Assembly (NCBI GenBank): GCA_018816185.1
Contig: JAHIWI010000115.1
Location: 6,454 to 70,453, forward strand
Origin: Bacillota bacterium
GTDB lineage: Bacteria > Bacillota > Bacilli > Bacillales_A > Planococcaceae
DNA: 64,000 bases
Reading direction: 5' to 3'
The position numbers were made by a program, and so were the translations under genes. The notes beneath the pieces are model-generated. The model was given only the letters and a program-made list of their open reading frames with translations, was not told the DNA's origin and ran no database searches. Positions 6,665 through 39,207 of the stretch are shown here, piece after piece (positions within the stretch are counted from its first letter, which is position 1; each line of letters begins with the position of its first letter).

Positions 6665-6703
6665 TTTCCAAAAACTCCTCTCAATCTATTTGCTTCTTAA
6701 TCT

Positions 6704-6790: not shown

Positions 6791-6871
6791 TATAGAGATT
6801 CTATTTTGAAACCTAAATTTTTGCACATAAAAAATCCCCCGTAAAAACTACGAGGAATTTTGAACAACAAT

Positions 6872-13206: not shown

Positions 13207-14694
13207 TTAAGGCAACACAGTCGCACCCATTAAATAGCGATCACATTCTCTTGCGACTTCGCGTCCTTCATTGATTGCCCAAACAATTAAACTTTGACCG
13301 CGACGCATGTCTCCAGCTGAAAAGACACCTTCGACGTTGGTTACGTATTTGCCGTATTCTGCTTTGACTGTAGAATTTGAATTCGTTTCGATGTTTAGTT
13401 GTTGCAGGAGTCCTTGTTCGGGTCCACTGAATCCGATTGCGAGCAATACTAAATCGGCTGTCCAGATTTTTTCGGTTCCTGGAATTTCTTCACGAATTCG
13501 ATTTCCTTCTTCATCAATTCTCAACTTCACGTTAACGGTATGAACTTCTTTTACATGACCAAGTTCATCTCCAACAAATCGCGTTGTTTGCACCGCATAT
13601 GCTCTTGGGTCTTCGCCAAATTTACTCGCCGCTTCCTTTTGGCCGTATTCGATTCGGTGAATGACGGGATATTGTGGCCATGGGTTGCCAACGTCATCAC
13701 GAATCGATCCCTTTTGATCGTAAATATCAAATTGAGTGAGACTGCGACAGTTATGACGGACTGCAGTCGCTAAACAATCGGTTCCTGTGTCACCGCCTCC
13801 AATGACGATGACATCTTTCCCTTCTGCAGATAAGAACTGTCCATCTTGATGATTGGAATCGAGATAGCTTTTCGTATTTGAATGAAGGAAGTCCATCGCA
13901 TAATGGACGCCATTCAACTCTCTACCTTCAACAGCAACATCTCGATGAACTGTTGCACCACCACATAAAATCGTCGCATCAAAATCTTGATGAAGTTGCT
14001 CAACAGAGTAGTCCTTACCGACCTCTGTGTTGGTGACGAACTTGATTCCTTCTTGCTCTAGAAGATTCACACGTCGTTGCACCATCTCGTATGGGATTTT
14101 CATTTCTGGAATTCCGTAAGTAAGTAGCCCACCTACTCGATCATTGCGTTCAAATACGGTGACCCAATGACCGGCTTTATTCAACTGGGCTGCAGCTGCT
14201 AACCCGGCTGGCCCTGATCCGATAACCGCCACTTTCTTACCCGTCCGTTTGTCAGGAGGCTCTGGAATGACCCACCCTTCTTCAAAGCCTTTTTCAATAA
14301 TGGCTCGTTCGACTGTCCGAATGGCTACAGGTGGTTCATTTATGCCTAACACGCAAGCCCCTTCACAAGGTGCAGGACAAGCGGCACCAGTGAATTCCGG
14401 GAAGTTGTTTTTTTCATGCTCCCGCTTCAGTGCTTCTTTCCATTGACCTTGATACACAAGATCATTCCATTCGGGAATTAAGTGATTCACTGGACACCCG
14501 GTGGTCACTCGGTTGATTTCCATTCCGGTATGGCATGTTGGGACGCCACAGTCCATGCATCGTGCGCCTTGTTCTCGCACTTCTGTATCAGACAATGGCA
14601 GCGTATAATCTTGCCAATCCTTTAGTCGTTCCAGTGGTGTTCGTTCAGGCTGTGTTTGTCGTGCATACTCCATAAATCCTGTTGGTTTTCCCAT
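13207..14694 (-). CDS. gltB: glutamate synthase small subunit (B. subtilis gltB = E. coli gltD)
   Basis: MGKPTGFMEY, RCMDCGVPTCH, CPAPCEGAC Fe-S motifs, GSGPAG, GGGDTGTDC, AGDMRRGQSLIVWAINEGR. Confidence 0.97.
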   Translation of the reverse strand: MGKPTGFMEYARQTQPERTPLERLKDWQDYTLPLSDTEVREQGARCMDCGVPTCHTGMEINRVTTGCPVNHLIPEWNDLVYQGQWKEALKREHEKNNFPEFTGAACPAPCEGACVLGINEPPVAIRTVERAIIEKGFEEGWVIPEPPDKRTGKKVAVIGSGPAGLAAAAQLNKAGHWVTVFERNDRVGGLLTYGIPEMKIPYEMVQRRVNLLEQEGIKFVTNTEVGKDYSVEQLHQDFDATILCGGATVHRDVAVEGRELNGVHYAMDFLHSNTKSYLDSNHQDGQFLSAEGKDVIVIGGGDTGTDCLATAVRHNCRSLTQFDIYDQKGSIRDDVGNPWPQYPVIHRIEYGQKEAASKFGEDPRAYAVQTTRFVGDELGHVKEVHTVNVKLRIDEEGNRIREEIPGTEKIWTADLVLLAIGFSGPEQGLLQQLNIETNSNSTVKAEYGKYVTNVEGVFSAGDMRRGQSLIVWAINEGREVARECDRYLMGATVLP

Positions 14695-14716
14695 GTCACC
14701 CCTCCTTTCCGCTAAC

Positions 14717-17700
14717 CTACTTTACGCCAGCTGCTTCCTTGTTACTTTCATCAAACGCAGTCATTTGTGCATCAAAAACGCTTAATCCTTCATCTTGAAG
14801 GGCTTGAATTCGTGAATTGATTTTCAAATACGCTTTTGGAATGACTTTGACAAACTGTGGTGCGTATTTCTCCCAGTAAGCTAAAATCCGTTTTCCATGC
14901 GCACTATTTGTATACTCAACGTGCTTTTCTAGCATGTTGTAAACATCTTGTAATTCACTTTCGTGTTCCATTGATTGAAGATGAACGAGCTCTGTGTTGC
15001 ATCTTGTGTGGAAGGTTCCATCTTCGTCAAACACATAGGCGATACCACCGGACATTCCTGCAGCAAAGTTTCGACCCGTTGTACCTAACACGACCACTTT
15101 TCCACCCGTCATGTACTCACATCCGTGATCCCCAACGCCTTCTACGACAACATTCGCTCCACTATTTCGCACACAGAAACGCTCTCCAGCGATTCCTTGA
15201 ATATAGGCCTCTCCAGCTGATGCACCGTAAAATGCGACATTCCCAATAATGATGTTTTTTTCAGGCGGAAACGTTACGACTGGATCTGGGTGAACAATGA
15301 TTTTCCCGCCAGATAACCCCTTTCCGACAAAGTCATTCGAATCTCCCACTAATTTGAGCGTCATCCCTTTTGGAATAAAAGCACCAAAACTTTGACCCGC
15401 TGAACCTTTTAACGTCAATCGAATCGTATCTTCTGGTAATCCTTTTTCACCGTATCGTCTCGTAATTTCACTTCCAAGCATTGTGCCAGTTACACGGTTT
15501 ATATTGCGAATAGCCGTTGTAAATTCAACAGGCTCTTGATTTTCAATCGCCTTTTTGCAATTTGGAATCAATTCTTGGAAATCGAGTGTTTTTTCTAATC
15601 CGTGATCTTGGTCAACGGTATGATAGCGACCTACTTTCGCAGGTAAATTCGGTGAATACAGCAACGCAGACAGATCGATATCTTTTGCTTTCCAGTGATC
15701 AATTGCTTGATTCACTTCAAGTGCATCCGTTCGTCCAACCATTTCATCTATCGTTCTAAAACCGAGTTGCGCCATCAGTTCTCTTGTTTCCATGGCTATG
15801 AAACGCATGAAGTTCGCCACATGCTCTGCATTCCCTGTGAACTTTTTACGTAGCTCAGGGTTTTGAGTTGCAACACCAACTGGACAAGTATCCATGTGAC
15901 ATACGCGCATCATAACGCAGCCTAATACAACAAGTGGTGCAGTAGAGAATCCATATTCTTCTGCGCCTAGTAGTGTCGCTAATACGACATCTCGTCCCGT
16001 CATCATTTTGCCATCTGTCTCAATGACGATTCGGTCACGCAGTCCATTTAATAACAACGTTTGGTGCGTCTCTGCTAAACCAATTTCCCACGGCAAGCCA
16101 GTATGCTTCAAACTGGTGCGTGGAGCTGCGCCAGTACCACCATCATATCCACTGATTAACACTAAGTCTGCTCGTCCTTTGGCTACCCCCGCAGCAATCG
16201 TACCAACACCTACTGCCGACACGAGTTTCACACTAATTCGTGCTCTTGGATTCGCATTTTTTAAGTTATGAATCAGTTCTGCTAAATCTTCTATTGAATA
16301 AATATCATGATGAGGTGGAGGTGAAATTAATTCCACTCCAGGCGTTGAGCCACGAACCTCTGCAATCCATGGGTACACTTTTTTCCCTGGCAGATGACCA
16401 CCTTCACCCGGTTTTGCCCCCTGAGCAACCTTGATTTGAATCTCGTCTGCATTCACTAAATAATGACTCGTCACACCAAATCGACCAGACGCCACTTGTT
16501 TAATAGAGCTTCGTCTAGAATCACCATTCTCATCAGGTGTGAAACGGTCGATGTCTTCGCCGCCTTCACCAGTATTACTACGTCCGCCAACTCGATTCAT
16601 GGCAATCGCTAAAGCTTCATGGGCTTCTTTTGAAATCGATCCATATGACATCGCACCTGTTTTAAAACGCGCGCAAATCGCTTCAACTGATTCAACTTCT
16701 TCAATTGGAACAGAAGGACGGTCTTTAAATTTCAATAATCCACGCAACGATTGAAGGTTTACCTTTTCATCCGTCAACATGCTTGTATATTTCTTGAAAA
16801 CCTCATAATTATTCGTGCGACACGCGTGTTGAAGTGTATGAATAGTACTTGGATTGTATTGATGGTCCTCACCGTTCGCTCGATATTGGAACTCGTCACC
16901 AGAATCCAAGGTTTTATTGCCACCACGGTTTTCTTGAAATGCCACTTCATGACGCAGAAGTGCTTCTTTTTCGATCATATCCATACCAATTCCGCCAAGT
17001 CGAGAAGAGGTTCGCGTGAAATATTTATCAATGACATCTCTATGAATGCCCACGGCTTCGAATATTTGTGCACCACGATAACTTTGAATGGTGGAAATCC
17101 CCATTTTCGAAAGCACCTTAATAATGCCATCAGTGACCGAATGGATATAATTATTTCCTGCTTGTACAAGTGAAGGCATTGATAGCTCACCTTTTGCCAT
17201 TAACTCTCGAATCGAGTCAAAAGCCAAATACGGGTTTATTCCTTCTGCACCAAACCCTAGAAGGGCCGCAAAATGATGCACTTCCCTTGGTTCACCTGAT
17301 TCCAGCAATATACTTACTTTTGTCCGTGTTCCTTGACGAATCAAATGATGATGTAAGCCCGAAACTGCTAATAATGCAGGTATCGCTGCTTGATGTTCAG
17401 ATACCCCTCTGTCCGATAAAATCAGCAAAGTGGTTCCTTCAGTGACCGCCTGGTCCGCTTTTATAAATAACTCTTCTAAAGCGTGTTCAAGAAGCCCGGG
17501 TTCTTTATTAGCAGAAAAAAGAATCGAAAACGTGGCCGGCTTAAACCCTTCTAATTGTTGTTGACGCAAAGATTCTAATTGTAAATTCGTTAAAATCGGA
17601 GTTTTCAGTCGAATGTGGCGACAGCTTTCTGCATTGGGGTTAACCAAATTACCTTCCGCTCCGATTGTTGTATCGACCATCGTAATAATTTTTTCTCGAA

Positions 17701-19303
17701 TTGCATCAATAGGTGGATTCGTTACTTGTGCAAACAATTGTTTAAAGTAGTTGTAAAGCAATTGAGGTTTTTTCGATAAAACAGCTAACGGAGAATCGTA
17801 CCCCATCGATCCGACTGGGTCTTTCCCTTCAAGCACTAAAGGTTTGATAATCTTCGTTAGTTCTTCCTGTGTATAACCAAAAGCAAGTTGCTGTTGTAAT
17901 AATGGTTCGCCAACGTAAACATGTGACTGTTCACTCGCTTCAGGTAAGTCTTCGAGATTGGTCATATTCTTCAGCCACTCTTTATAGGGCTGCTCTGAAG
18001 CAATTTGTAGTTTAACCTCTTCGTCTGGAATAATCGTCCCTTTTTCTAGGTCGATTAAAAGAATCTTTCCAGGTGCTAATCGTTCCTTGTATTCAATATC
18101 GTCCGCGAAAATATCCAATGCCCCTACCTCTGAACCAAGGACAATCATGCCGCTTTTTGTGACGTAATAACGTGCGGGTCTTAAACCATTGCGGTCAAGT
18201 GTGGCGGCGATTTGTTTCCCATTTGTAAACACCAATGCAGCCGGTCCATCCCAAGGCTCCATTAATGTACTGTGATACTCATAAAAATCACGTTTCTCTT
18301 CAATAATAGTCTTATCATTTGCCCATGGTTCAGGTACCATCATCATGGCCGTATGAGCGATAGAACGTCCTGATAAGTGTAGAAATTCAAAACAATTATC
18401 AAACATGGATGAATCACTGCCATCCGCATCAATGACTGGCAGAACTTTCTGCAGATCCTTTTCATTGAAAAATTCCGAATCAGTCATTTGTTCACGGGCT
18501 CGCATCCAATTCACATTGCCGCGTAGTGTATTAAATTCACCATTATGAATGGTGTAACGGTTTGGATGTGCACGCTTCCAACTCGGAAACGTATTGGTGC
18601 TGAATCGAGAATGTACGAGAGCTAAAGCAGATTTGAAATCTGGATGATTTAAGTCGATGAAAAATGAATCTAATTGTTCGGGGATTAGCATGCCTTTATA
18701 GACAATGGTTTGGGTTGATAAACTACAGATGTATACGTCTTCGTACGCTCTAAAGTCAGCCATTTCACGCTCTATGCGTTTACGGATGATATACAATTTA
18801 CGCTCGAAAGCCAGTTGATCTTGGCAATTTGAAGACATTTGGATGAATACTTGTCTAATCGTAGGTTTCGTTTTCGTTGCTACTTTTCCAACAAACGAAT
18901 CATTGATGGGCACTGGTCGCCATCCAAGAAATACTTGACCTTCTTCGGCAATAATTCGCTCAAAAATTTCTTTACTCTTCATACGAATCTCGTGATCTTT
19001 TGGTAGAAACACCATACCGACCGCATATTCGCCTTCTCTTGGTAAAATAATATCTTCTTTCTCACATTGTTTTTGGAAGAAGCGATGAGGAATTTGCGTT
19101 AATATACCCGCTCCATCTCCTGTACTTGTATCTGCGGATTGCCCTCCGCGATGTTCCATATTACAGAGGATGGTCACTGCATGTTGAACGATACTATGTG
19201 TTTTTTTGCCATTAATGTTTGCAATCATGCCAATTCCACAAGCCTCATGTTCTTGCTCTGGGTCATACAATCCTTGCGGAACTGGATATCCAGTCTTTAT
19301 CAT
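14717..19303 (-). CDS. gltA: glutamate synthase large subunit (B. subtilis gltA = E. coli gltB)
   Basis: EHEACGIG N-terminal Cys, [50 protein letters not shown] domain. Confidence 0.98.
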
Positions 19304-19429
19304 GACATCGCCCCTCTCTCTTCATCTTTGAAAGATTTCTCTATAGATATCGAACAAGTATATCACAAAATCATAGTTCACATAAAATTCTGACAACAAA
19401 TAATGTGTATTTTTATTTATTTTCATGAA

Positions 19430-19443
19430 TGAAAACGCTATCA
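19430..19443. promoter_or_regulatory. cre (CcpA) site upstream of gltA
   Basis: TGAAAACGCTATCA fits TGWNANCGNWNWCA. Confidence 0.55.
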
Positions 19444-19835
19444 ACATGGACTAACCCACAAATCTTTGTGAATAAAAAAATGTTGAAAATACTCATATTA
19501 TTGACCATTAAAACGAATCACCTGAAAATAGTTCTACAATAAATACTCATAGTTTATGCATCGATTCATCTTGATATGATTCAAAACAATCGTGTTTTCT
19601 TCTAATTGAAAAACAACAGTATTAAAATTTATTTAGTTGATTTCGTTTCAGTTGGAGCGTTCCGCACGCATAGATTCGCTTTATCATGTCTTCAACTGTG
19701 TAACGCCTAATTAAAAAACAGAATGGTCGATATATGAACTTTGTTTCATTTCCTTTGGATGTCTTACCACTTCTTCGGATGACAATATTAATGTAGTGCA
19801 TATGAATGACAAAATTGTAAAGAATGAATACTATA

Positions 19836-19885
19836 TTGACTTTCCTCCTCATAGTCTTATAATTGATTATGATAATCATTTTCAT
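19836..19885 (+). promoter_or_regulatory. sigmaA promoter with overlapping Fur box
   Basis: TTGACT(19836)-16 bp-TATAAT(19858); GATTATGATAATCATTTTC at 19865-19883 matches 17/19 of GATAATGATAATCATTATC. Confidence 0.8.
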
Positions 19886-20128
19886 TTAAGCAATTAGAGA
19901 TAGCTCTCAGGATGAGTCAAAGGAAGTAGATTTAAATACAAGCGTTCATTACAATGTTGATGATGGATTATATAAAGCATTCGAAAAAAATGAAATTAAA
20001 ATAAATTTATTATAGGTCAGCCAGATGAGATACCTGGGTGCATTAAGCGTAAGTATTTTAGATATATAAACTGTTTGAGCTAACAGCTCACACAGATTCA
20101 GGAGAAACTAATAATAGAAAGGGTGTAA

Positions 20129-20380
20129 ATGATGAGAAATATCGAAAAATATCGTAATGCATTTATTAATGCGCTGGACTTGGAGGATGGTGTTGTAGTT
20201 GAAGATTTAGCACTTGGTGAATCACCAGAGTGGGATTCAATTGGACATATGACACTCATTGCTGTTATTGAGGATGAATTTGATGTCTCAATAGATTCTG
20301 AATGGATCACAGAGTTCAATTCTTATCAGTCAGGAATGGAACTATTGAATCGATTGGGAGTAGACTTTATTAATGAATAG
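20129..20380 (+). CDS. acyl/aminoacyl carrier protein
   Basis: 83 aa, acidic, WDSIGHM phosphopantetheine-Ser motif, IEDEFDVSI; RBS GAAAGGGTG. Confidence 0.9.
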   Translation: MMRNIEKYRNAFINALDLEDGVVVEDLALGESPEWDSIGHMTLIAVIEDEFDVSIDSEWITEFNSYQSGMELLNRLGVDFINE

Positions 20381-21767
20381 TTTTAAAACACTTGACGAGT
20401 TTGGAAACCGAACCGCAGTATATGCTGAAAGAGAATATTCTTACTCTGAAATGGTAGAAATTGCTGACGCTATCCGTGGTAATGTAGGTGAAAGAACGCT
20501 CGTTTTTTGTTTATGTTCAAATAATAAGGAGTCTTTATTTGGCTATGTGGGTTTTATTAGAGGCAGTGTAGTTCCTGTACTTTTGGATGCATCCATGCAT
20601 ATTGATCGGTTGCGCAGACTGATTAATCTTTATAAGCCTACATACATTTGGGCGGGTACGGAAAATCAAGACTTATTAAAAGAAATGGATAGTTCATTTG
20701 TGTATGGTGATTACACATTATTTAGATGTCCGACAGGGTTCCAACATCATCTTGATGAACATCTTGCGCTTCTTTTAACAACCTCTGGGAGTACAGGAAG
20801 CGCAAAATTTGTACGCTTAAGCTATGATAATATTTTCAAAAATGCTGACTCTATAAGGAAGTACCTTGACATTAATTCAGACGATAAACCGATAACAACT
20901 CTTCCAATGAATTATTCCTATGGCCTTTCTATCATTAATAGTCATTTCATAAGCGGTTCGACGATAATTGTAACGGGTGCATCTATCATGAAAAAAGAGT
21001 TTTGGGACTTATGTAGAGAGCAACGAGCAACAACTTTTGGAGGAGTTCCTTTCGTGTATGAGATGCTTGATAGGCTTAATTTTGAAGAGTTTAATCTTCC
21101 GAGTTTAAAAAAACTAACTCAAGCTGGTGGGAAATTAAGCTCAGTTCTATCATACAAATTTGCTGAAGTTTGTAGTAAGAAAGGAATTCAATTTTTTACT
21201 ATGTACGGCCAAACTGAAGCAACGGCACGAATGACTTATTTACCTTATGAAAAAAACTTTGATAAAGTCGGAAGTATTGGTATTGCCATTCCGGGTGGAG
21301 AACTGTTTCTGCAAGATGACAATGGCAACAAAATTACAACGCCTAATGTTACTGGCGAATTGATATACAAAGGAGCAAATGTTTTTTTGGGGTACGCTGA
21401 GTCGTTATTCGATCTTTCAAAAAAAGATGAGAACAACGGTATTTTGCACACAGGTGATCTGGCTTATTTTGATCAGGACGGGTATTTTTTTATTTCTGGT
21501 CGAATCAAAAGAATGATTAAATTCTATGGAAACCGCATTAGCTTGGATGAAGTCGAAGGACTTTTAAACGAGTATGGTCATGATTGTATTTGCGCTGGGA
21601 CGGATGACCAAATGTATATTTACACATTAAAAGACGATGGTGTTCAAATTAAAAAAATAATAAAGGAAAAATTAAACTTAAAGGGTATTAAGATTATGAA
21701 AATCGAGGAATTTCCACGTAATCATTTCGGAAAAATCCTTTATTCTGATTTACCTAATTATGAATAA
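20373..21767 (+). CDS. AMP-forming acyl/aminoacyl ligase (ANL superfamily)
   Basis: TTSGSTGSAK P-loop, TQAGG, MYGQTEAT, LHTGDLA, GRIKR, PRNHFGK A10 lysine; overlaps the ACP stop. Confidence 0.9.
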   Translation: MNSFKTLDEFGNRTAVYAEREYSYSEMVEIADAIRGNVGERTLVFCLCSNNKESLFGYVGFIRGSVVPVLLDASMHIDRLRRLINLYKPTYIWAGTENQDLLKEMDSSFVYGDYTLFRCPTGFQHHLDEHLALLLTTSGSTGSAKFVRLSYDNIFKNADSIRKYLDINSDDKPITTLPMNYSYGLSIINSHFISGSTIIVTGASIMKKEFWDLCREQRATTFGGVPFVYEMLDRLNFEEFNLPSLKKLTQAGGKLSSVLSYKFAEVCSKKGIQFFTMYGQTEATARMTYLPYEKNFDKVGSIGIAIPGGELFLQDDNGNKITTPNVTGELIYKGANVFLGYAESLFDLSKKDENNGILHTGDLAYFDQDGYFFISGRIKRMIKFYGNRISLDEVEGLLNEYGHDCICAGTDDQMYIYTLKDDGVQIKKIIKEKLNLKGIKIMKIEEFPRNHFGKILYSDLPNYE

Positions 21768-21850
21768 TTCACTTTCGCCTGAACCTTTTACAATACCTCA
21801 AATTCGCAAATGAGTGTGACACTTTCTAGGTGAACTATTGAAAAAACGTA

Positions 21851-21940
21851 AACCCTACATTAGTACATTGTTAATTCGTACTATAGCGTTTTGTCGTCAC
21901 TTTAAGGGGACTGGCGGCTTGGACAACTGTAGGGTTATTT
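21851..21940 (+). ncRNA. putative structured intra-operon RNA element
   Basis: Closing stem AACCCTACA/TGTAGGGTT encloses hairpins TAGTAC/GTACTA and GTCGTCA/TGGCGGC; U-rich tail. Confidence 0.45.
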
Positions 21941-21990
21941 ATTATTCGATTTATAAAAAATCTTAAGTTTATTTTTAATCAGGTGATAGT

Positions 21991-23442
21991 ATGACTTTTA
22001 TATCAATTGAGTTTCTCCTGTTTTTCGCAATAATCGTATTTACTTATTATTTAATCCCACATCGATTGAGATGGATTCTTCTATTAGCAGCAAGTTACGT
22101 TTTTTACGCAATCTTGAGTATCCAATTTATACCGTTACTACTTACAAGCACAGCTTTTACTTATGTTACTGGAATTATTATTGAAAAACAGGAGACAAAA
22201 AAACAAAAGAAAAAAGTCATGCTAGTCGGTATTTTCGTGTTATTGTTTTTTCTCGGTTGGTTTAAATATTTTAATTTTGTCAATGACTCATTTCGAGCGA
22301 TTGCTAAATACATGGATTGGAACTATACCTTACCTTACCAAGAAATTGTTCTGCCATTAGCCATTTCATTTTATACACTTCAGGCAGTAAGTTATCTTGT
22401 GGATATTTACTATGGTAAGCAAAAGGCGGAAAGACATTACGGTTATTTTTCAATTTATTTTGCGTTTTTTCCACAATTGGTTGCTGGGCCGATTGAACGT
22501 GCGAAGAAACTGCTTCCGCAATTTAAAGTTGAACAGAAGTTAAATTATGAAAATTTACACTATGGGATGAAACGAATCGCATGGGGTTTTTTTAAGAAAA
22601 CATTAATTGCCGATCGACTAGCTCCAATTGTTTCTAGTGTATTCGATAATCCTAACCCGACTGGTTCACAAATTGTACTAGCTACTATTTTATTCTCGAT
22701 TCAATTGTTCGCAGATTTTTCAGCACTCAGTGACATCGCTATCGGTTGTGCAAAAATGCTCGGAATAAATTTGAGTGAAAATTTTAAGCAACCCCACTAT
22801 GCAGTATCGATAGCAGATTTTTGGAGTAGATGGCATATCACGTTTTCTACATGGCTCAGGGACTATATCTTTATCCCTCTATGTAAAGGAAAAAAGAAGA
22901 GAAGTGAAATTTATTTAGCAATTGTAATGACTTTTTTAGTAAGTGGCATTTGGCACGGAGCCGCTTGGACTTTTGTTATATGGGGTTTCATTCATGGATT
23001 TTATCGCGTGTTTGGAGATTATACGAAACAGTTTCGTGGAAAAATGGCTTCATTTATACAACTGGATCAAAGTCCAGTGCTCCATAAATGGATCAAAATC
23101 GCCATAACCTTCCTTCTAGTTTGCTTTTCTAGAGTTTTTTTTCGATCGGATTCTGTTACACAAGCATTTGAAAATGCACAGCTTTTCTTAACAATTCACT
23201 CATGGAGGCCATCGGGAATTGTACAAGCATTTGAAATATTTTCGCTCCTTGATTTAGTGATATTCCTATTCTTCTTTATTATTGTACAAATATTTCATTA
23301 TATCGAAAGAAATAATGTTTCAACATGGAAATGGCTCTCGGGGAACTCGATAACCGCTAGATTCGCATTTTATATTTTTATTATTGTTTCAGTCCTTATA
23401 TTCGGTGTTTCGGGTCAAGGATTTATTTATGGGGGATTTTAA
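21991..23442 (+). CDS. MBOAT O-acyltransferase (AlgI/PatA/DltB family) with C-terminal Tyr shuttle motif
   Basis: LPLAISFYT, FFPQLVAGPIER, DFWSRWHITFSTWLRDYIF, SGIWHGA catalytic His; ends FIYGGF. Confidence 0.93.
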   Translation: MTFISIEFLLFFAIIVFTYYLIPHRLRWILLLAASYVFYAILSIQFIPLLLTSTAFTYVTGIIIEKQETKKQKKKVMLVGIFVLLFFLGWFKYFNFVNDSFRAIAKYMDWNYTLPYQEIVLPLAISFYTLQAVSYLVDIYYGKQKAERHYGYFSIYFAFFPQLVAGPIERAKKLLPQFKVEQKLNYENLHYGMKRIAWGFFKKTLIADRLAPIVSSVFDNPNPTGSQIVLATILFSIQLFADFSALSDIAIGCAKMLGINLSENFKQPHYAVSIADFWSRWHITFSTWLRDYIFIPLCKGKKKRSEIYLAIVMTFLVSGIWHGAAWTFVIWGFIHGFYRVFGDYTKQFRGKMASFIQLDQSPVLHKWIKIAITFLLVCFSRVFFRSDSVTQAFENAQLFLTIHSWRPSGIVQAFEIFSLLDLVIFLFFFIIVQIFHYIERNNVSTWKWLSGNSITARFAFYIFIIVSVLIFGVSGQGFIYGGF

Positions 23443-23537
23443 TCTAAATACTAATTACACGGGAAATTTGGATGCGTTTTATTAGTGAGCCATTCAGTAA
23501 CCTTTGTGAAATAAGCACTAAATTGAAAGGATTTGTT

Positions 23538-24443
23538 ATGGGACGTTTATTCATTAAGTTAACAATTATCATTACTGTTGTTTCACTTCTGTTTATACCG
23601 GTAAATAACTTTGTAAAACAATCTCATGATTACAATATTAACCATGCAATGCTGGCGTTTAAGAAACATCCATATCCAGTTGATATCATCAATTTAGGTA
23701 CATCTCATTCAATGTATGCTTATTATTTTAAGCCTACTGGTTTGTCCCATCTGGACTTAGCACTACCTGCTCAGACGATTCAGTATGACTATAAATTGTT
23801 GAGAGAGTATGGCGAGTATCTTAAACCTGATGGTGTAGTCATCATCTCCATCTCTCAAATTACTTTCGCAAATTCTGAGACCAATTATGTAGGAAATTAT
23901 TATAAGGTTTTAGACCGCACCGAGATTGAACCGTTTGATTTAATTGATTATTACAGTTACCTGTACTTACCTGCCTTAGATAGTGGTCGTTTTAATTCTG
24001 CGCTCGCGGGTAAATTTAAAAACTTTAAATGGAATTCTCATCAATCTTGGAAAAATAACGGTAAAAACTATTCAGAAAGAAAGTATGAGAAAGTAGAAGC
24101 ACAATATAGAGAAGCGATTGAAAATAAAACCATTGAACAAAATGTGGAGCAGTTAAGAGAGATGGTAGATTATTGTAGCGAGAAAGGGTACCGAGTAGTA
24201 TTAACCATGGAGCCAGTACAACAGTCTTATCAAGAATATTTCAATGAAGAAGTAATGAATAAACTTGTTTTTCAGTACTTAAAACCCCTTGAATTAGATA
24301 TCCCTTTTTTAAATTATATGAGTGATCACAGATTCGTAAACAACAGAGAATACTTTATCGACCCAGATCATTTAAATAGCGAAGGAAGAAAAAAATATTC
24401 TTGGATTGTGTACAAGGACCTTAAGAAATTGGGCTATTTATGA
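23538..24443 (+). CDS. membrane-anchored SGNH-fold acyltransferase (DltD/AlgJ/PatB-like)
   Basis: N-terminal TM, block I LGTSHS, block V DPDHLN; RBS GAAAGGA before ATG 23538. Confidence 0.8.
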   Translation: MGRLFIKLTIIITVVSLLFIPVNNFVKQSHDYNINHAMLAFKKHPYPVDIINLGTSHSMYAYYFKPTGLSHLDLALPAQTIQYDYKLLREYGEYLKPDGVVIISISQITFANSETNYVGNYYKVLDRTEIEPFDLIDYYSYLYLPALDSGRFNSALAGKFKNFKWNSHQSWKNNGKNYSERKYEKVEAQYREAIENKTIEQNVEQLREMVDYCSEKGYRVVLTMEPVQQSYQEYFNEEVMNKLVFQYLKPLELDIPFLNYMSDHRFVNNREYFIDPDHLNSEGRKKYSWIVYKDLKKLGYL

Positions 24444-24536
24444 GCGACTTATATGCCTTTTATTGATATAAACTTATTTATACGTGGAAGATTTAATTTC
24501 TATTGATGCCCATATATACAAGGGGTAACAAAGTTT

Positions 24537-24583
24537 ATCTCCTGGAACACAATATAATTCTTGTTTTCCAGGAGATTTTTTTA
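24537..24583 (+). terminator. terminator closing the ACP-MBOAT operon
   Basis: ATCTCCTGGAA...TTCCAGGAGAT followed by a T run. Confidence 0.75.
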
Positions 24584-24728
24584 TTTCTACTACGACTAAA
24601 AATGTGATTATAATTAGGTGAAATCCAACACACAAAGACTTTATCTACTATCCATGAACTTAATTACATAACAAAAAAACCAACCAGCAAGAGAGAAGAC
24701 TCTCTTCCTGATTGGTTTCATATATCGT

Positions 24729-25337
24729 TTATTTACTTTGATACCATGCACTAGCTTTTTCTACTTCACTAAACGTTAGTTGATGGCCATTAGCCTCCCA
24801 CTCCAATGTCACTACAGCACCAGCTTGTTCCAACAAGGCTTTCAAGTCTTCAGATTCTTGTGCCGGACAAATCGGGTCATTAGAACCCGCTCCAATGAAC
24901 ACGTGTTTCCCAGCTAAATTCGGCAAGTCAATTCCTCTTCTTGGAACCATTGGGTGATGAAGCACTGCGCCTTTTAATGAATCTTCGTAATGGAATAATA
25001 AACTTGCAGCAATATTTGCCCCATTCGAATAGCCCACTGCGTAAATATTGTACCGGTCAAAACCATATTCGGTTGCTGCTTGATCTAGAAAGTCATTTAA
25101 TTCTTTTGTACGGAAAACTAAGTCCTCTTCATCAAATACACCTTCAGCTAAACGCTTGAAAAAGCGAGGCATTCCGTTTTCTAACACATTTCCTCTTACA
25201 CTAAGTACATTCGCTTCCGGATCTACTTTTGATGCTAATGGAAGCAAGTCATGCTCTGTTCCACCTGTTCCGTGTAACAAAAGCAATGTAGGTCTAGTAG
25301 GGTCATTCCCTTGTTGAAAAAGATGTCTCATTGTCAT
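24729..25337 (-). CDS. mhqD: alpha/beta hydrolase (carboxylesterase), MhqD/YodD-like
   Basis: LLHGTGG, GYSNGANIA nucleophile elbow, NDPIC, GHQL; downstream of the dioxygenase. Confidence 0.8.
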   Translation of the reverse strand: MTMRHLFQQGNDPTRPTLLLLHGTGGTEHDLLPLASKVDPEANVLSVRGNVLENGMPRFFKRLAEGVFDEEDLVFRTKELNDFLDQAATEYGFDRYNIYAVGYSNGANIAASLLFHYEDSLKGAVLHHPMVPRRGIDLPNLAGKHVFIGAGSNDPICPAQESEDLKALLEQAGAVVTLEWEANGHQLTFSEVEKASAWYQSK

Positions 25338-25344
25338 TTTCTTC

Positions 25345-26289
25345 TCACCCTTCATTATCTAAATTGCGAACTTCAATTGGAGGTAAGACATTCATTAATG
25401 CATCTCGATGTTGTTCATACTGGGCTGGTAATTTCAACTCGGTACCCATTGTTTCACCGGATTCATCATGAGCAAACCCTGGAGGATCCGTTGCAATTTC
25501 GAATAAAATCTCGCCACGTTCTTTAAAGTAAATCGCATTAAAGTAGTTGCGATCTTGGACAGGTGTTACTCCGTATCCTGCATTTCCAACATGTTCACGC
25601 CACTCTAACTGATCAGCGTCATCTTCAGCGCGCCATGCAATATGGTGAACCGTTCCCACTCCCATTTGTCCTCGTCCACTAGGAGAAGATTTCACATCGA
25701 TTATATTGCCGATTTCCCCATACGATTTGAATCGCATCAAGCCATTTTCTTCCGCAATTTTTTCAAGACCCATCACATCTACTAATAATTTAGCTGTTTG
25801 GTCTGGTTGAGCTGAAAACAACGTTGCTCCACCAAATCCTTTAATGGCTACATTTGATGTCACTTCACCGAAAGCCCATGAACTTTGGTCTCCACTTGCT
25901 CGCTCAACTAATTCTAGTTGTAAGCCGTGCGTATCTTTAAACGTCAAATATCTTTCACCGAAACGTTCTGATTTCGAAAACTCAATATTAAATTTCGTTA
26001 GTCGGTTCTCCCAAAATGGAAAAGCACCTGTAGGCACAACATATGAAGTCACTCCTACTTGCCCATCTCCGATTACACCAGGATAAGCATCTGCCCATGG
26101 GAAAAACGTGATAATCGTTCCTGGTTTTCCTCCGTCATTACCAAAGTACAAATGATACGTACCTGGATCATCGAAGTTCACTGTTTTTTTAACCATCCGT
26201 AAACCCAAAATTCCTGCATAAAAATCTACATTTTGTTGTGGATGTCCAACAATCGCTGTTATATGGTGAATCCCTGCTGTTCGTTTCAT
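25345..26289 (-). CDS. mhqO: ring-cleaving dioxygenase, MhqO-like
   Basis: GIHHITAIVGHPQ, KKTVNFDDPGTYHLYFG, GTVHHIAWR, DRNYFNAIYF, FEIATDPPGF. Confidence 0.88.
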   Translation of the reverse strand: MKRTAGIHHITAIVGHPQQNVDFYAGILGLRMVKKTVNFDDPGTYHLYFGNDGGKPGTIITFFPWADAYPGVIGDGQVGVTSYVVPTGAFPFWENRLTKFNIEFSKSERFGERYLTFKDTHGLQLELVERASGDQSSWAFGEVTSNVAIKGFGGATLFSAQPDQTAKLLVDVMGLEKIAEENGLMRFKSYGEIGNIIDVKSSPSGRGQMGVGTVHHIAWRAEDDADQLEWREHVGNAGYGVTPVQDRNYFNAIYFKERGEILFEIATDPPGFAHDESGETMGTELKLPAQYEQHRDALMNVLPPIEVRNLDNEG

Positions 26290-26732
26290 TTTGTTGTCAC
26301 TCCTTTTTGTGTGGGCACTTTTTTCCCTACTCTTTTTAATAAATCGATCAATACATCGTGTTCTTGTTCTGTGAGTTCAGAAAAAATATCTTCAATGACG
26401 AGTTGATGTTGCGGGAAAATTAAATCCATTACTCGTTGCCCTTCGTCAGTTAACTCAATATAAACAACACGACGATCTTCTTTGCAATCACTACGCGTCA
26501 GCCAGCCCTTATCTTCTAATTTATCGATGACGTACGTAATCGAACCCGTTTTAATCAAGACAGCTTCGGCTATTTGACGAATGGTTTGTCTCCCTTTATG
26601 ATAGAGCGTTTCCATAATGACAAAATCAGATGTGCGCATGTCATAGGAGGTAATGTCTGTTGTAATCAATTCTTGAACTGATTTTGATGCTTTCATTAAA
26701 ACAATAAATGATTTCAATGACTTGTTTTCCAT
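26286..26732 (-). CDS. mhqR: MarR-family quinone-sensing repressor, MhqR-like
   Basis: LYHKG...GSITYVIDKLE...EDRRV wHTH; adjacent operator and mhq genes. Confidence 0.8.
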   Translation of the reverse strand: MENKSLKSFIVLMKASKSVQELITTDITSYDMRTSDFVIMETLYHKGRQTIRQIAEAVLIKTGSITYVIDKLEDKGWLTRSDCKEDRRVVYIELTDEGQRVMDLIFPQHQLVIEDIFSELTEQEHDVLIDLLKRVGKKVPTQKGVTTK

Positions 26733-26955: not shown

Positions 26956-27564
26956 TTAATTCGAAATATGAAGACCCATCGTTTTCGCGGGTCCATTAAT
27001 AACTAGATTCAATAAGGATTTAGCCATTTCCTCGGGAGAGTATGGTTGGTTCTGTTCAATCCACCAAAAGATTGTACCTGTTACTCCTGACACAATGAAC
27101 GGTAGGAATAATTCTTTTGGCATTGTTCGATTCGATTCATTTTTGCCAAAAAATACATCAAATTGTGATGTAAAAATATCTGATACCATATTCACAAATC
27201 GATCTTTAATGTTATTCGTGGTTTGGTTTGCTAATAAAACCTTAAAAAAATAAAGATCACGCTCTACAATTTGAAAGGCTGTACAAATCACAAATAAAAA
27301 TCGCTCTGGATATAAGGTTCCATCTCTTACATGCCTAGCCTCGTAAATATGATTTCGAAAGGCAGACAGTTTTTCTTCGACTAAACGGTCAAGTAAATCA
27401 TATTTGTCCGTGTAGTGCGAGTAGAATGTAGCACGGTTAATCATCGCTTCTTCTGCAATATTTTGAATCGTAATATCTTGAAATTGCTTGGTTTCTAATA
27501 ATTTTAAAAGTGCTACTTCAATTGCTAATTTTGTTTTCTTAATACGTAAATCTACTTTTTTCAT
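26956..27564 (-). CDS. TetR/AcrR-family regulator
   Basis: DLRIKKTK...ITIQNIAEEAMINRATFYSHYTDKYDLL. Confidence 0.92.
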   Translation of the reverse strand: MKKVDLRIKKTKLAIEVALLKLLETKQFQDITIQNIAEEAMINRATFYSHYTDKYDLLDRLVEEKLSAFRNHIYEARHVRDGTLYPERFLFVICTAFQIVERDLYFFKVLLANQTTNNIKDRFVNMVSDIFTSQFDVFFGKNESNRTMPKELFLPFIVSGVTGTIFWWIEQNQPYSPEEMAKSLLNLVINGPAKTMGLHISN

Positions 27565-27724
27565 AAATTTCCACCCCGTTTATCTACAAATTGCAATGAA
27601 GTGTTGTTTAAACAACGATAAGTACTTTTTTGCAAATTGATTCCTTCGTATGAAACATAGATACTTAAAGTTAACCACAGAAAGAATATTATGCAACAAT
27701 GCGTTGCTTAAAGGAGGAGTCACT

Positions 27725-28429
27725 ATGATTGTCTCTGTTCAAAATTATCACCAGTCTTTTGGCAAAAGATCTATTTTAACCAATCTTAATTTTCAAATAC
27801 AAAAAGGAGAAATCGTTGGGTTAATTGGACCAAGCGGATCTGGAAAAACGACGTTAATCAAGACACTAATTGGACTTCAGCGACCTACTCAAGGAGAAGT
27901 ACATGTACTAGGCCATCAACAGCCTACATTAAAAGTTTCAAAAGAAATTGGCTATATGGCTCAATCGGATGCACTGTATGAAGATTTATCAGCTCGAGGA
28001 AACCTTGCCTATTTCGGAAAATTGTATGGATTACGTAAAGATATTTTAAAGAATCGAGTAAACTTCGTATTGGCTTTTGTCGACTTACTTAAAGATGCAG
28101 ATCGTCCAGTCCGTTATTTCTCAGGGGGGATGAAACGTAGGCTGAGCCTCGCTATATCATTAGTCCATCAACCACCGTTTCTCTTGCTGGATGAACCCAC
28201 TGTGGGTATTGATCCTACTCTTAAACAGTTGTTTTGGAAAGAATTCGAGTCACTCCGTGAGAACGGTGTAACGTTACTAATTACCACCCACATTATGGAT
28301 GAGGCTGAGCGCTGTGATCGCCTGTTATTAATTCAAAATGGCCAATTAGTTGTTAGTGGAACTCCCGATATGTTAAAACAAAAATTCGGATCAATTGAAA
28401 ATGCATTTCTAAAAAAGGAGGAAGTATAA
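27725..28429 (+). CDS. ABC exporter ATP-binding protein
   Basis: GPSGSGKT, FSGGMKRR, LLDEPT; RBS AAGGAGG before ATG 27725. Confidence 0.93.
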   Translation: MIVSVQNYHQSFGKRSILTNLNFQIQKGEIVGLIGPSGSGKTTLIKTLIGLQRPTQGEVHVLGHQQPTLKVSKEIGYMAQSDALYEDLSARGNLAYFGKLYGLRKDILKNRVNFVLAFVDLLKDADRPVRYFSGGMKRRLSLAISLVHQPPFLLLDEPTVGIDPTLKQLFWKEFESLRENGVTLLITTHIMDEAERCDRLLLIQNGQLVVSGTPDMLKQKFGSIENAFLKKEEV

Positions 28430-29559
28430 TGCAGTCTATTATCGTTGCGCAGCGAGTAATTGCTCAAGTCGTCAAAGATAAAAGAACCATTGGCATGATG
28501 CTAGTTGCCCCTCTTTTTGTTTTGTTTTTAATGTACACGATTTTTGGCGCTAGCTCTGATGACGTCACGATTGGCATTGTTAACCTACCTGAAGAAGTGA
28601 CCCAATTACTAAAGGAAGAAGCAACCGTCATCACTTTTCCAACAAATAATGATGCAAAGAAAGCGATGATTGAACAGAAAATTGATGCTTCGATTTCTTT
28701 TGAAAATGAAACTGCTCATATTCTTGTAGAGGGTGGTAATGTATCCAAAAACGCTTCTGCCATTCAAAAAATACAACGTACTTTAACGGTGCTCACACTG
28801 GAAAAAAGTCATGTTCAAATACAATCTCTCAATGAATTAGTTGTTCAACTACAAGAACAACTTCGTCTTATTACTGGTCAAACACCTGAGAAAGTTGCTA
28901 TCCCTAAAACACTCTCTCAAAAATCGAGCATTTCTTTTTTATATGGCGATTCGGAACTTGATTTATTTGATCAATTAGCACCTGCGTTAATGGGATTTTT
29001 TATATTCTTCTTTGTTTTTCTGATTTCGGGGGTCAGTTTCTTAAAAGAACGTTCTTCTGGAACACTTGAACGAACTCTAGCTACTCCACTAAAAAGATCT
29101 TCAATCGTTCTTGGCTATTTTATAGGCTTTTTCTTATTCGTTATCATTCAAACCATTCTAATCCAATTGTTCATCGTGAATATCTTAGGAGTCACTCAAA
29201 ATGGCAACTACGGTATTCTGCTACTTGTCAATCTCTTAACTGCAAGTGTCGCGCTCGCGCTCGGATTGTTGCTTTCGAGTTTCTCCCGATCCGAATTTCA
29301 GCTTATTCAATTCATTCCATTAGTCATCATTCCTCAAATATTCTTCAGCGGGATGTTTGATTTATCCGATGCACCTACTTGGGTAGAGTTTATCAATAGA
29401 ATTGTGCCTTTAACATATGCAGCAGAAGCTCTTCAGAATGTCATGACACGCGGTCATACGTTTATCGATATTTGGCCAAACCTATTGGTACTGATCGGGT
29501 TCGTCATTGGGTTTTTCTTATTAAATATGAAAGTTCTGAAAAAGCAACGACCGGTTTAA
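28429..29559 (+). CDS. ABC-2 type exporter permease
   Basis: KDKRT N-terminus, KERSSGTLERTLATP, PQIFFSG, PLTYA. Confidence 0.9.
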   Translation: MQSIIVAQRVIAQVVKDKRTIGMMLVAPLFVLFLMYTIFGASSDDVTIGIVNLPEEVTQLLKEEATVITFPTNNDAKKAMIEQKIDASISFENETAHILVEGGNVSKNASAIQKIQRTLTVLTLEKSHVQIQSLNELVVQLQEQLRLITGQTPEKVAIPKTLSQKSSISFLYGDSELDLFDQLAPALMGFFIFFFVFLISGVSFLKERSSGTLERTLATPLKRSSIVLGYFIGFFLFVIIQTILIQLFIVNILGVTQNGNYGILLLVNLLTASVALALGLLLSSFSRSEFQLIQFIPLVIIPQIFFSGMFDLSDAPTWVEFINRIVPLTYAAEALQNVMTRGHTFIDIWPNLLVLIGFVIGFFLLNMKVLKKQRPV

Positions 29560-36253: not shown

Positions 36254-37261
36254 CTACTTCTTAGTTAATAAATATATAAAATATGGTGCACCAATAAGAG
36301 CAACCATAACGCCAGCTGGAAGACCGTTCGGTTCTACGATATTTCGACCGATCGTATCCGCAATCAGTAACAGCCAGCCTCCAATTAGTAAACTCAATGG
36401 AAGAAACAACTGGTGTCTTGGTCCAACGAGAGTACGTGCAATATGTGGTGCCATTAATCCAATAAACGAAATCCCACCTGTCACTGAAACAGCTGATGCA
36501 GCAAGTGCTACGGCCACTAACGTTAGGACAATTCGTTCTTTTTGGACGGATAGACCAACCCCTATGGCTACTGGTTCACCTAGACCAAGAATGTTTAAGC
36601 GATTCGCTTTTATTAAAGCAAATGGTATAAGGACAATTAACCAAGGAAGTAAGGCCAAGACAAACGGCCAGTCCGTTCCCCAAATATCTCCAGCAAGCCA
36701 ACGAGCGATGAAATCCACTTTGATGCGGTCAGCTGATGAAATCATGACAATCATTGCGCCTGATAAAGCCATCGACATTCCGACGCCCACTAATACTAGC
36801 TTTACTGGCTGCATGCCTGTCGTCCTGCTATAGGAAAATACATAAATTATAACAGCCGTGAGCAAAGCACCAAGAAATGCGACAAAAGGAAGTGCGTAAA
36901 TAAATGTACCTGCCTCTGCAGGGAAATACAAAAAGAATATGGCAACCGCTACGCCCGCTCCAGAATTTATTCCGATAATTCCAGGATCCGCTAACTCATT
37001 ACGAGTAATTCCTTGCAATAAGGCACCTGAAAGAGCCAAAGCCATTCCGGCTAATAAGGTAATGACGATACGTGGTAAGCGCACTGAAAAAAGGACAAAC
37101 TCCTCTTTAAACTCCCCTTGGCCGAGTAAAGTTGGAATAATGCGATCGTATGATACGGAGGCGTATCCGAGCCCCATACCGATTATTGCAGTTGTTATTA
37201 TTAATAATGTGAAAGTAATGAACAAAAGTCTCTGTTTTCGAATGATAGAGGTTTCAATCAT
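36254..37261 (-). CDS. fhuG: iron-siderophore ABC permease (FecCD family, FhuG-like)
   Basis: RLPRI, TRNELADPGIIG, FIGLMAPHIAR, IGAPYF. Confidence 0.85.
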   Translation of the reverse strand: MIETSIIRKQRLLFITFTLLIITTAIIGMGLGYASVSYDRIIPTLLGQGEFKEEFVLFSVRLPRIVITLLAGMALALSGALLQGITRNELADPGIIGINSGAGVAVAIFFLYFPAEAGTFIYALPFVAFLGALLTAVIIYVFSYSRTTGMQPVKLVLVGVGMSMALSGAMIVMISSADRIKVDFIARWLAGDIWGTDWPFVLALLPWLIVLIPFALIKANRLNILGLGEPVAIGVGLSVQKERIVLTLVAVALAASAVSVTGGISFIGLMAPHIARTLVGPRHQLFLPLSLLIGGWLLLIADTIGRNIVEPNGLPAGVMVALIGAPYFIYLLTKK

Positions 37262-38268
37262 GTGAAACTTCGCCCTCCTTTTCGCACAATGTACAAGAAG
37301 AATGGCAAGCCCATTATGGCTACGACTGCAGCTACAGGTGTTTCATATGGTGCATTGATTGTGCGAGCCACTGTATCCGCAAGTAGCATAAACGCAGCTC
37401 CTACTATCGCTGACATTGGAAGCACAAATCGATAATCTGTTCCGACAACCGACCTTACAATATGGGGTACCATTAAGCCGAAAAACGCAAGATTTCCAAC
37501 GAGTGCCACAGAAGCACCTGTTAAAATAATAACCAAGACAAACAAAATCGATTTGATCAATCGAATGCGTTGTCCTAAACCTACCGCCATTTCTTCACTT
37601 AACGAAAGAATGGTTAATTGTCGAGAGCACATGAGAGAAATCGCCACTCCAATTAACACAATCGGGGCAATCAAAGAAACTTGATTCCACGTTGTCCCAA
37701 TCATTCCTCCAGCTGTCCACATAGACACTTGCTGAGAAATTTTAAAATAAATGCCTATGCCTTCAGCAATAGCATAAAGAAAAGCAGAAATCGTTGCTCC
37801 TGCCAAAATAATTCGAAGAGATGTGAAGCCTTCTGGGTGAAATGAGCTAAAACCGAAAACCAAGATTGCCCCTACAGCTGCTCCTATGAAACAGGTCAGC
37901 ATGACACCAAAGTAGTTAACCGATGGCCAAAATGCAACCATAATCGCTAGTGCGGCATTCGCTCCAGCTGTAAGACCTAACAATCCTGGATCGGCAAGGG
38001 GGTTACGAGTCATGCCCTGAATAATAGCACCGGAAACGGCAAGAGCCGCGCCTACAAGGGCAGCGGCTACTTCTCGCGGAAAACGAATTTCCCGCAACAT
38101 AATGGCTTGGTCATTCGGTGCAGTGGTGAATATGGCAGATAGGACATCGCGAACATTCGTATCGGCCGCTCCGAAAACTAAAGCCATGCCGAACAGCACA
38201 ATCATCAGAATCACGCTCACACCAAGTTTAATAGAATATGGAATGCGTTGAATCCGATAATTTAACAT
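37258..38268 (-). CDS. fhuB: iron-siderophore ABC permease (FecCD family, FhuB-like)
   Basis: IRFPR, TRNPLADPG, FGLMVPHIVR, GLPFF. Confidence 0.85.
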   Translation of the reverse strand: MLNYRIQRIPYSIKLGVSVILMIVLFGMALVFGAADTNVRDVLSAIFTTAPNDQAIMLREIRFPREVAAALVGAALAVSGAIIQGMTRNPLADPGLLGLTAGANAALAIMVAFWPSVNYFGVMLTCFIGAAVGAILVFGFSSFHPEGFTSLRIILAGATISAFLYAIAEGIGIYFKISQQVSMWTAGGMIGTTWNQVSLIAPIVLIGVAISLMCSRQLTILSLSEEMAVGLGQRIRLIKSILFVLVIILTGASVALVGNLAFFGLMVPHIVRSVVGTDYRFVLPMSAIVGAAFMLLADTVARTINAPYETPVAAVVAIMGLPFFLYIVRKGGRSFT

Positions 38269-38271
38269 GAA

Positions 38272-39201: not shown

Positions 39202-39207
39202 TTTATG

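Follow-up and report, generated by a model that had tools for sequence, protein, structure and literature searches.

A candidate carrier-fed MBOAT-SGNH acylation cassette with a conserved Fur box in Bacillales

What would a bacterium do with an acyl carrier protein (ACP), an adenylating ligase, an MBOAT (membrane-bound O-acyltransferase) and an SGNH-fold protein whose genes stand in a single row with no polysaccharide genes beside them? This question is raised by a 64-kb window, by which we mean the whole stretch of DNA analyzed here, from a draft Paenisporosarcina genome that comprises 382 contigs and is 82% complete; all coordinates are 1-based on the whole window. An earlier reading of the same DNA letters, hereafter the original prediction, had described four co-oriented genes that end in one terminator and form a stand-alone, Dlt-like module for acylation of a surface polymer, apparently under iron control. 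All four genes are present as + strand open reading frames in the list of reading frames and translations, and, as had been claimed, no polysaccharide genes were found adjoining the cassette within the window. The motifs that had been listed can all be read in the translations: the ACP contains EWDS; the ligase contains TSGSTG, TQAGG, YGQTEAT, TGD and a GK near its C-terminus; the MBOAT contains IWHG; and the SGNH protein contains both LGTSH and DPDH. The terminator is real as well, but it sits just beyond 24443, where the set had been said to end. We think it probable that these genes constitute a self-contained, mobile four-gene operon, repressed by Fur, in which a carrier-fed MBOAT-SGNH relay would attach a small acid, other than an amino acid, in ester linkage to an acceptor on the cell surface.

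Conservation and spread of the cassette

We searched one genome per species with the fourth (SGNH) protein and recovered 53 loci, all from Bacillales, 51 of which had enough upstream DNA for the survey. The gene order ACP-ligase-MBOAT-SGNH is kept in every one of these 51 loci, which represent at least 12 genera, and each gene appears as a single full-length, unbroken alignment. Across the 51 loci, identities range from 55 to 86% for the ACP, 62 to 87% for the ligase, 70 to 90% for the MBOAT and 54 to 92% for the SGNH protein. The cassette is thereby present in about 50 Bacillales species, and the genera that carry it include Paenisporosarcina, Planococcus, Planomicrobium, Fictibacillus, Sutcliffiella, Metabacillus, Neobacillus, Ureibacillus, Lysinibacillus, Exiguobacterium, Jeotgalibacillus and Chryseomicrobium, among others. 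This co-conservation of the four genes is far beyond chance. The flanks, on the other hand, are common only within a genus and consist of unrelated housekeeping genes (MsrA, tRNA methyltransferase, proteases, Dus), and no conserved neighbor that would hint at the substrate or the acceptor was found among the flanks of the surveyed loci. Given that the four genes are conserved together amid unrelated flanks, the description of the cassette as a stand-alone module holds.

The distribution of the cassette within the GTDB family of the host is patchy, covering 30 of 370 species and 8 of 21 genera. The window ligase shares 88% identity with its counterpart in Metabacillus fastidiosus, which belongs to another family, but no more than 68% with the ligase of Paenisporosarcina cavernae, a member of the same genus. 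The phylogeny of the cassette is thus at odds with taxonomy, a pattern in the sequences which indicates that the whole cassette has moved horizontally.

A distant version of the four-gene set lies on a metagenome contig (locus L072, positions 2762-6906 of that contig), where it encodes an ACP of 76 residues, a ligase of 468 residues, an MBOAT of 489 residues and an SGNH protein of 301 residues. It is the nearest cassette outside the Bacillales cluster, and its SGNH protein is the next nearest relative of those in the cluster.

Parts of the predicted relay

The ACP taken alone is only weakly similar to ACPs, but a profile of 13 orthologs matches only solved ACPs, over their full length and with a best E-value of 9e-6. 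A PP-binding match is found in 10 of the 13 orthologs, and the W-D-S motif is invariant. One phosphopantetheinyl transferase gene is present in the host genome.

The ligase matches the Pfam AMP-binding family with an E-value of 1.3e-41, and its ANL motifs are complete. It falls under every NCBIfam cutoff, with matches that include 2-oxoglutaryl-ACP ligase, malonyl-CoA synthase, and long- and medium-chain fatty-acid-CoA ligases, and its best solved relatives are oxalyl-CoA synthetases (E 1e-27). Outside the cassette, its closest relatives, at about 50% identity, are found in glycan loci with the gene order ACP-ligase-LuxE-LuxC-(GNAT)-SDR-split transketolase (the contexts of P0113 and P0120). 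The ACP-ligase pair of one such LuxE-LuxC locus (L071) shares 49% identity with the window ligase from end to end and 39% with the window ACP, the latter with an HHalign probability of 99.4%. A maximum-likelihood tree places the cassette ligases and the LuxE/LuxC-associated ligases in one clade with support of 100/99, and the branches between this clade and both DltA and seven further ANL enzymes of the host genome are long. The ligase of the distant L072 cassette groups with the LuxE/LuxC-associated ligases and not with the Bacillales cassette ligases, a placement which suggests that the ligase-ACP module has been exchanged between contexts.

The window cassette and the LuxE/LuxC-type cassettes are therefore alike in having a small ACP gene adjacent to the gene for a ligase of about 465 residues from the same ANL subclade. 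They differ in that the window cassette has no LuxE/LuxC, SDR or transketolase genes and no cytoplasmic sugar N-acyltransferase, and its acyl-ACP is proposed to go to the MBOAT. A further parallel, drawn by gene order and size and not by sequence, is the WbeK/WbeL (RfbK/RfbL) pair of Vibrio cholerae O1. WbeL is a 471-residue ligase required for tetronate in that organism (PMC3441752), and its putative role is to join a small hydroxy acid with four carbons (C4) to either CoA or RfbK, the carrier (PMC12208996).

Judged by its sequences, the cassette is not a Dlt system. Against the DltA model (TIGR01734, cutoff 559.85 bits) the ligase scores 92.4 bits, whereas the true DltA of genome G029 (the same as G058), a metagenome-assembled genome from Bacillales, scores 692.9 bits. 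The ligase is 28% identical to this DltA over 271 residues, and in their alignment FSFDLS stands against NYSYGLS, so that the ligase has Ser in place of Asp. The Asp of this FD pair, which belongs to the A4 motif, binds the alpha-amino group of the substrate in enzymes that activate amino acids. Likewise, the MBOAT scores 154.5-156.8 bits against the DltB model (TIGR04091, cutoff 375 bits), and its 483 residues compare with about 385-400 for DltB. No cassette protein is matched by the DltC and DltD models (TIGR01688 and TIGR04092), and no pairwise similarity is detectable between the ACP and the DltC of G029 or between the SGNH protein and the DltD of G029; DltD is longer than the SGNH protein by about 100 residues, and the fold alone is common to both. 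Thus, the claim that the ligase is not DltA-like stands on both its score and its separate clade, and the phylogeny against DltA that had been proposed as a check sets the cassette ligases apart. Because the amino-binding Asp is absent and the ligase is kin to the LuxE/LuxC-cassette ligases and oxalyl-CoA synthetases, an organic acid is favored over an amino acid, and we propose with modest confidence that the substrate is most likely a small organic acid, possibly a hydroxy- or dicarboxylic acid.

A search for a separate canonical dlt operon, the other check that had been proposed, gave a divided answer. G029 has a complete dltX-A-B-C-D operon, with all proteins above the cutoffs, beside its cassette, but DltB is absent from all 16 species of the host genus, and a canonical DltB is present in only 1 of 49 cassette genomes. 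We considered whether this near-exclusion marks a functional replacement of dlt by the cassette and rejected that explanation: the host genus lacks dlt with or without the cassette, so no conclusion on replacement can be drawn from it. G029 (loci L035 and L070) has four MBOAT genes in all, namely the canonical dlt gene, the cassette gene and two further genes for long MBOATs of 467 and 489 residues.

What the cassette does share with Dlt is its layout, in which a dedicated adenylating ligase would load a dedicated small carrier and an MBOAT, an FXYXXF Tyr and a membrane-anchored SGNH-fold protein are present. The differences are that Dlt carries the shuttle on the DltX microprotein whereas the cassette has it fused to a longer MBOAT, that the cassette ligase belongs to the acyl-CoA-ligase type, without the Asp that binds the amino group, and that the gene order is another and Fur is predicted to control the operon. 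Another envelope modification outside Dlt has a dedicated ligase and carrier as the cassette does, namely the AlmE/AlmF/AlmG system for glycine modification of lipid A in V. cholerae. Unlike the cassette, however, that system uses AlmG, a lipid A acyltransferase of the cytoplasmic face, instead of an MBOAT-SGNH pair, and its AlmE is DltA-like and activates an amino acid.

The third protein matches Pfam MBOAT with an E-value of 4e-26, and His322 (in IWHG), His282 and Tyr480 are invariant among its orthologs. DltB aligns to residues 118-380 only, and the remaining 100 or so residues hold two more hydrophobic, predicted membrane segments; in its sequence the protein is of the longer PatA/AlgI type. 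In all 51 orthologs the C-terminus reads F[IV]YG[GRN]F followed by the stop (FIYGGF in the window). The assignment to the AlgI type is therefore borne out by the C-terminal extension and by the fused FIYGGF, the latter a feature that the original prediction did not describe. FXYXXF is an acyl-shuttle motif that lies on the microprotein DltX in Dlt and is fused to the C-terminus, on two extra helices, in other MBOATs; PatA acetylates the Tyr of its own motif from acetyl-CoA, and PatB takes the acetyl group from that Tyr (PMC12148441). With the shuttle Tyr fused to the MBOAT, no DltX would be needed, and no conserved small reading frame resembling DltX was found in the 51 loci, in which the spacer upstream of the MBOAT gene shrinks to 15 nt.

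The MBOAT shares with PatA and AlgI its length, the two extra C-terminal hydrophobic segments, the FXYXXF end and the conserved catalytic His, and, as PatA does with PatB, it has an adjacent SGNH-fold partner (Z 12.6 to PatB) with a Ser nucleophile and a DxxH block. PatA/PatB and AlgI/AlgJ, however, use acetyl-CoA and have no carrier, whereas the window cassette has an ACP and a ligase in all 51 loci. MBOAT/SGNH pathways other than Dlt have been stated to work without a carrier protein (PMC12148441). At the level of gene content, the cassette contradicts this rule.

The fourth protein has no family match in the copies of Pfam and NCBIfam that we searched, and some of its homologs carry a precomputed match to PF27429. 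An AlphaFold (AF2) model built from 29 homologs, with a predicted local distance difference test score (pLDDT) of 84, consists of an N-terminal membrane helix followed by an SGNH-hydrolase fold. With this model, Foldseek matched PAF-AH and DltD at E-values of about 5e-5, and VIA-align gave Z-scores of 13.9 to 11.4 to TesA, YxiM, PatB and the C-terminal domain of OatA (11.9). In the alignment of the SGNH proteins, G-[AT]-S-H and D-P-D-H-L-N form conserved blocks. Distant relatives form 4719 clusters at E-values up to 1e-3 and often lie in polysaccharide loci. Taken together with the modeled fold, the identification of the fourth protein as a membrane-anchored SGNH-fold protein is supported.

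Predicted iron control and layout of the locus

We searched the 450 nt upstream of each ACP gene for a Fur box of the 7-1-7 type, with TGATAATnATTATCA as the consensus and up to two mismatches allowed. Of the two overlapping boxes in the window, TGATTATGATAATCA differs from the consensus at two positions and TGATAATCATTTTCA at one. A box is present upstream in 49 of the 51 loci, compared with a background of 0.045 per 450 nt in the same loci, although this count overstates their independence because the loci are related by kinship. The boxes come in several sequence variants, and the motif persists across at least 10 genera while the surroundings of the cassette change. All of them keep TGA...TCA ends, which are typical of the Fur class and set them apart from PerR and Zur boxes. 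Elsewhere in the 64-kb window there is just one more such site, TGATAACGATTATCA, which has one mismatch and lies in a divergent promoter region; it fronts an iron-siderophore-type ABC importer and, on its other side, the gene for a thioredoxin-reductase-like flavoprotein (flavoprotein reductase). Given that this second box stands at a siderophore importer, it offers a check from within the window that the motif goes with iron genes in the host genome, which has three Fur-family genes. Iron control of the cassette through its Fur box is strongly supported by these sequence patterns, and the apparent iron control that had been predicted gains its main footing from the conservation of the box.

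The coordinates of the cassette, its signals and its neighbors are collected in Table 1.

Table 1. Features of the cassette and its surroundings in the 64-kb window.
Feature	Coordinates	Strand	Remarks
Sigma-A-type promoter, TTGACT-16-TATAAT	19836..19863	+	11 of 12 consensus matches; top promoter-like site of 19200-24800
Two overlapping 7-1-7 Fur boxes, TGATTATGATAATCA and TGATAATCATTTTCA	19864..19884		Abut the -10 element on its 3' side
Leader, about 245 nt	19885..20128	+	Length not conserved; box-to-start distance 40-385 nt among orthologs
ACP, 83 aa	20129..20380	+	W35-D36-S37 invariant, with phosphopantetheine predicted on Ser37
ANL-superfamily adenylating ligase, 464 aa	20373..21767	+	AMP-binding match; 8-nt overlap with the ACP gene
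Ligase-MBOAT spacer, 223 nt	21768..21990	+	No conserved reading frame; 15-255 nt among orthologs
MBOAT, 483 aa	21991..23442	+	H322 (IWHG) and H282 invariant; C-terminal FIYGGF with Tyr480
Membrane-anchored extracytoplasmic SGNH-fold protein (predicted), 301 aa	23538..24443	+	N-terminal transmembrane helix, G-[AT]-S-H block, DPDH
Intrinsic terminator, 15-bp interrupted stem and UUUUUUU	24537..24583	+	Hairpin 24537-24576
Glutamate synthase large and small subunits (gltB-, gltD-like)	13207-19303	-	Upstream border; gltB is 14717-19303
mhqR/E/D-like quinone-detoxification operon	24729-26732	-	Downstream border; convergent with the cassette
TetR-family regulator gene and ABC-2-type exporter (ATPase and permease)	26956-29559		Regulator gene divergent from the exporter
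Iron-siderophore-type ABC importer	36254-39999	-	ATPase, Peripla_BP_2 binding protein, two FecCD permeases
Second Fur box, TGATAACGATTATCA	40039-40053		
Thioredoxin-reductase-like flavoprotein	40164-41228	+	

The ACP and ligase genes are, from the overlap of their reading frames, translationally coupled. For the fourth gene, the likely start is 23538, which follows a GAAAGGA ribosome-binding site and gives the length found in most orthologs; an alternative start lies upstream at 23472. The terminator hairpin has a predicted stability of -20.2 kcal/mol with a z-score of -5.7, and none of 200 shuffled sequences was equally stable. A search of positions 19200-24800 against Rfam, at E-values up to 1, gave no hit, and on that basis the leader and the spacer are not known riboswitches.

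The spacer between the ligase and MBOAT genes is about 77% conserved in a subgroup of loci with long spacers (L018, L019, L023, L026, L028, L033 and L055). A segment right after the ligase stop codon, TCGCCTGA (TCACCTGA in most orthologs), is able to pair with the Shine-Dalgarno sequence of the MBOAT gene, TCAGGTGA, and a U-rich tract comes after an inner stem, AACCCUACA/UGUAGGGUU. No compensatory changes that would speak for an RNA structure were found in the spacer; the covariation term is +1.06 and the z-score of the fold is only -2.05. The pairing may serve translational coupling or attenuation. The spacer also contains a 42-codon reading frame (21838-21966) that we considered as a DltX and rejected, given that it lacks FXYXXF and that the spacer is just 15-68 nt long in many orthologs.

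Upstream, gltB is transcribed divergently from the cassette, from which it is separated by an intergenic region of 825 nt. The mhqR-mhqE-mhqD-like operon downstream encodes a MarR regulator, a two-domain dioxygenase of the glyoxalase family and a carboxylesterase, the last of which scores 201 bits against the MhqD model, under the cutoff of 325 bits.

Proposed mechanism, rival readings and significance

From this set of parts we infer the following course of events. When iron is sufficient, Fur would repress the operon, and iron starvation would release Fur. The ligase would then adenylate a small carboxylic acid from the cytoplasm, of a kind other than alpha-amino acids, and transfer it as a thioester to the phosphopantetheine arm of the ACP. 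By analogy with Dlt, the acyl-ACP may dock on the cytoplasmic face of the PatA/AlgI-type MBOAT, whose His322 would move the acyl group to the protein's own Tyr480, within FIYGGF, on the outer face of the membrane. A prediction of the ACP-MBOAT complex scored 0.25 against a mark of 0.32, a value that counts neither for nor against such docking. The catalytic Ser of the SGNH protein would take the acyl group from Tyr480 and esterify an acceptor outside the cytoplasm. This acceptor is most likely a glycopolymer of the wall or the membrane, such as lipoteichoic acid. An LtaS-like gene is present in the host genome, and a TagF-type teichoic acid polymerase was not found in that genome, which is 82% complete.

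Several observations weigh against this course of events. The Fur box is a sequence match and not a measured iron response, and no such box lies upstream of the distant L072 cassette. Transcription of all four genes as one unit would have to cross the 223-nt spacer with its stem and U-rich tract, and is inferred. A PatA-type MBOAT would be expected to use acyl-CoA, docking of the ACP rests on the analogy with DltB and DltC, and the ligase could in principle make acyl-CoA instead of acyl-ACP. Finally, the Asp of the DxxH block of the SGNH protein is replaced by Asn in the Exiguobacterium orthologs.

These observations have to be set beside other ways of reading the cassette. One is a divergent form of D-alanylation, in which the cassette replaces Dlt in dlt-less Bacillales and places D-Ala or another amino acid on teichoic acid. 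The shared logic of ligase, carrier, MBOAT, Tyr shuttle and SGNH protein, the scarcity of canonical DltB in cassette genomes and its absence from the host genus, and the LtaS-like gene of the host are all compatible with such a role. We nevertheless judge it improbable, given that the ligase scores far below the DltA cutoff, is only 28% identical to DltA, has Ser for the amino-binding Asp and is parted from DltA by long branches, and that in sequence the ACP bears no detectable similarity to DltC, nor the SGNH protein to DltD. In addition, both systems occur together in one genome, host-genus species that lack the cassette also lack dlt, so that the cassette is no necessary substitute, and Fur control is not a dlt feature. 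The long MBOAT with its fused FXYXXF, as in the acetyl-CoA-using PatA, and an SGNH protein resembling PatB and OatA would suit an ordinary acetyl-CoA-dependent O-acetylation pair of the PatA/PatB or AlgI/AlgJ kind, with the ACP and the ligase serving otherwise or supplying acetyl or another short acyl group. This, too, seems quite unlikely to us, since the ACP and the ligase accompany the MBOAT and the SGNH protein in every surveyed locus, behind one promoter and with translational coupling, since the L072 locus is again an ACP-ligase-MBOAT-SGNH set, and since acetyl transfer in a cell that has acetyl-CoA calls for no ligase and carrier of its own.

The identity of the acyl group raises a further alternative, namely that the ligase is a fatty-acyl-AMP/ACP ligase and that the relay puts a fatty acid on a surface protein, lipid or glycopolymer. 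Eukaryotic MBOATs do transfer fatty acyl groups, and the NCBIfam matches to long- and medium-chain fatty-acid-CoA ligases score similarly to those of other families. These matches lie far under their cutoffs and cover the core only, however, while the closest solved relatives are oxalyl-CoA synthetases and the closest natural ones belong to cassettes that tailor small hydroxyacyl groups for sugars; moreover, the characterized Tyr-shuttle systems carry acetyl or D-alanyl (PMC12148441). We regard a fatty acid as a poor candidate. Lastly, the SGNH protein could act hydrolytically, or pass the acyl group to an acceptor that is small and soluble, in a cassette that exports or assembles a diffusible, iron-related compound. 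Siderophore pathways are typically under the control of Fur, esterases are common among SGNH proteins, and no polymer-synthesis genes are linked to the cassette. That reading strikes us as very improbable, because the characterized MBOAT-SGNH pairs all acylate polymers (PMC12148441), because many relatives of the membrane-anchored SGNH protein lie in polysaccharide loci, and because the release of a common acid to the outside would waste the ATP spent on it.

Returning to the favored reading, a Fur-repressed relay that esterifies a surface acceptor, a more specific version of it can be put forward, although we consider it unlikely. Iron starvation would lead to a glycopolymer of the wall or the membrane esterified with a small hydroxy- or dicarboxylic acid, for instance one of a malate-, succinate- or 2-oxoglutarate-like C4-C5 kind, as a tethered, siderophore-like layer. 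If this is true, free carboxylate or alpha-hydroxy-carboxylate groups would make the envelope an iron-capturing layer.

No description of the cassette was found in a full-text literature search, which did not reach most subscription journals. The cassette looks like an undescribed cousin of the Dlt and PatA/PatB systems. In the current division of these pathways, Dlt has a ligase, a carrier and a separate DltX, and the others use acyl-CoA and a fused shuttle without a carrier (PMC12148441). Since the cassette combines carrier feed, as its gene content predicts, with a fused shuttle, this two-way division appears not to be strict, and the acyl group that is moved could be chosen by swapping the ligase-ACP module. 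If the more specific version with an iron-capturing layer is true, the cassette would be the first iron-regulated envelope acylation system, and its MBOAT the first of the PatA type shown to be carrier-fed. The cassette is small and self-contained, and its carriers include species in culture from the genera Planococcus, Exiguobacterium, Sutcliffiella, Fictibacillus and Metabacillus, so that both the identity of the acid and the use of the modification with respect to iron are directly testable. The conserved Fur box points to a link, without precedent in the literature searched, between iron starvation and chemical remodeling of the Gram-positive envelope.

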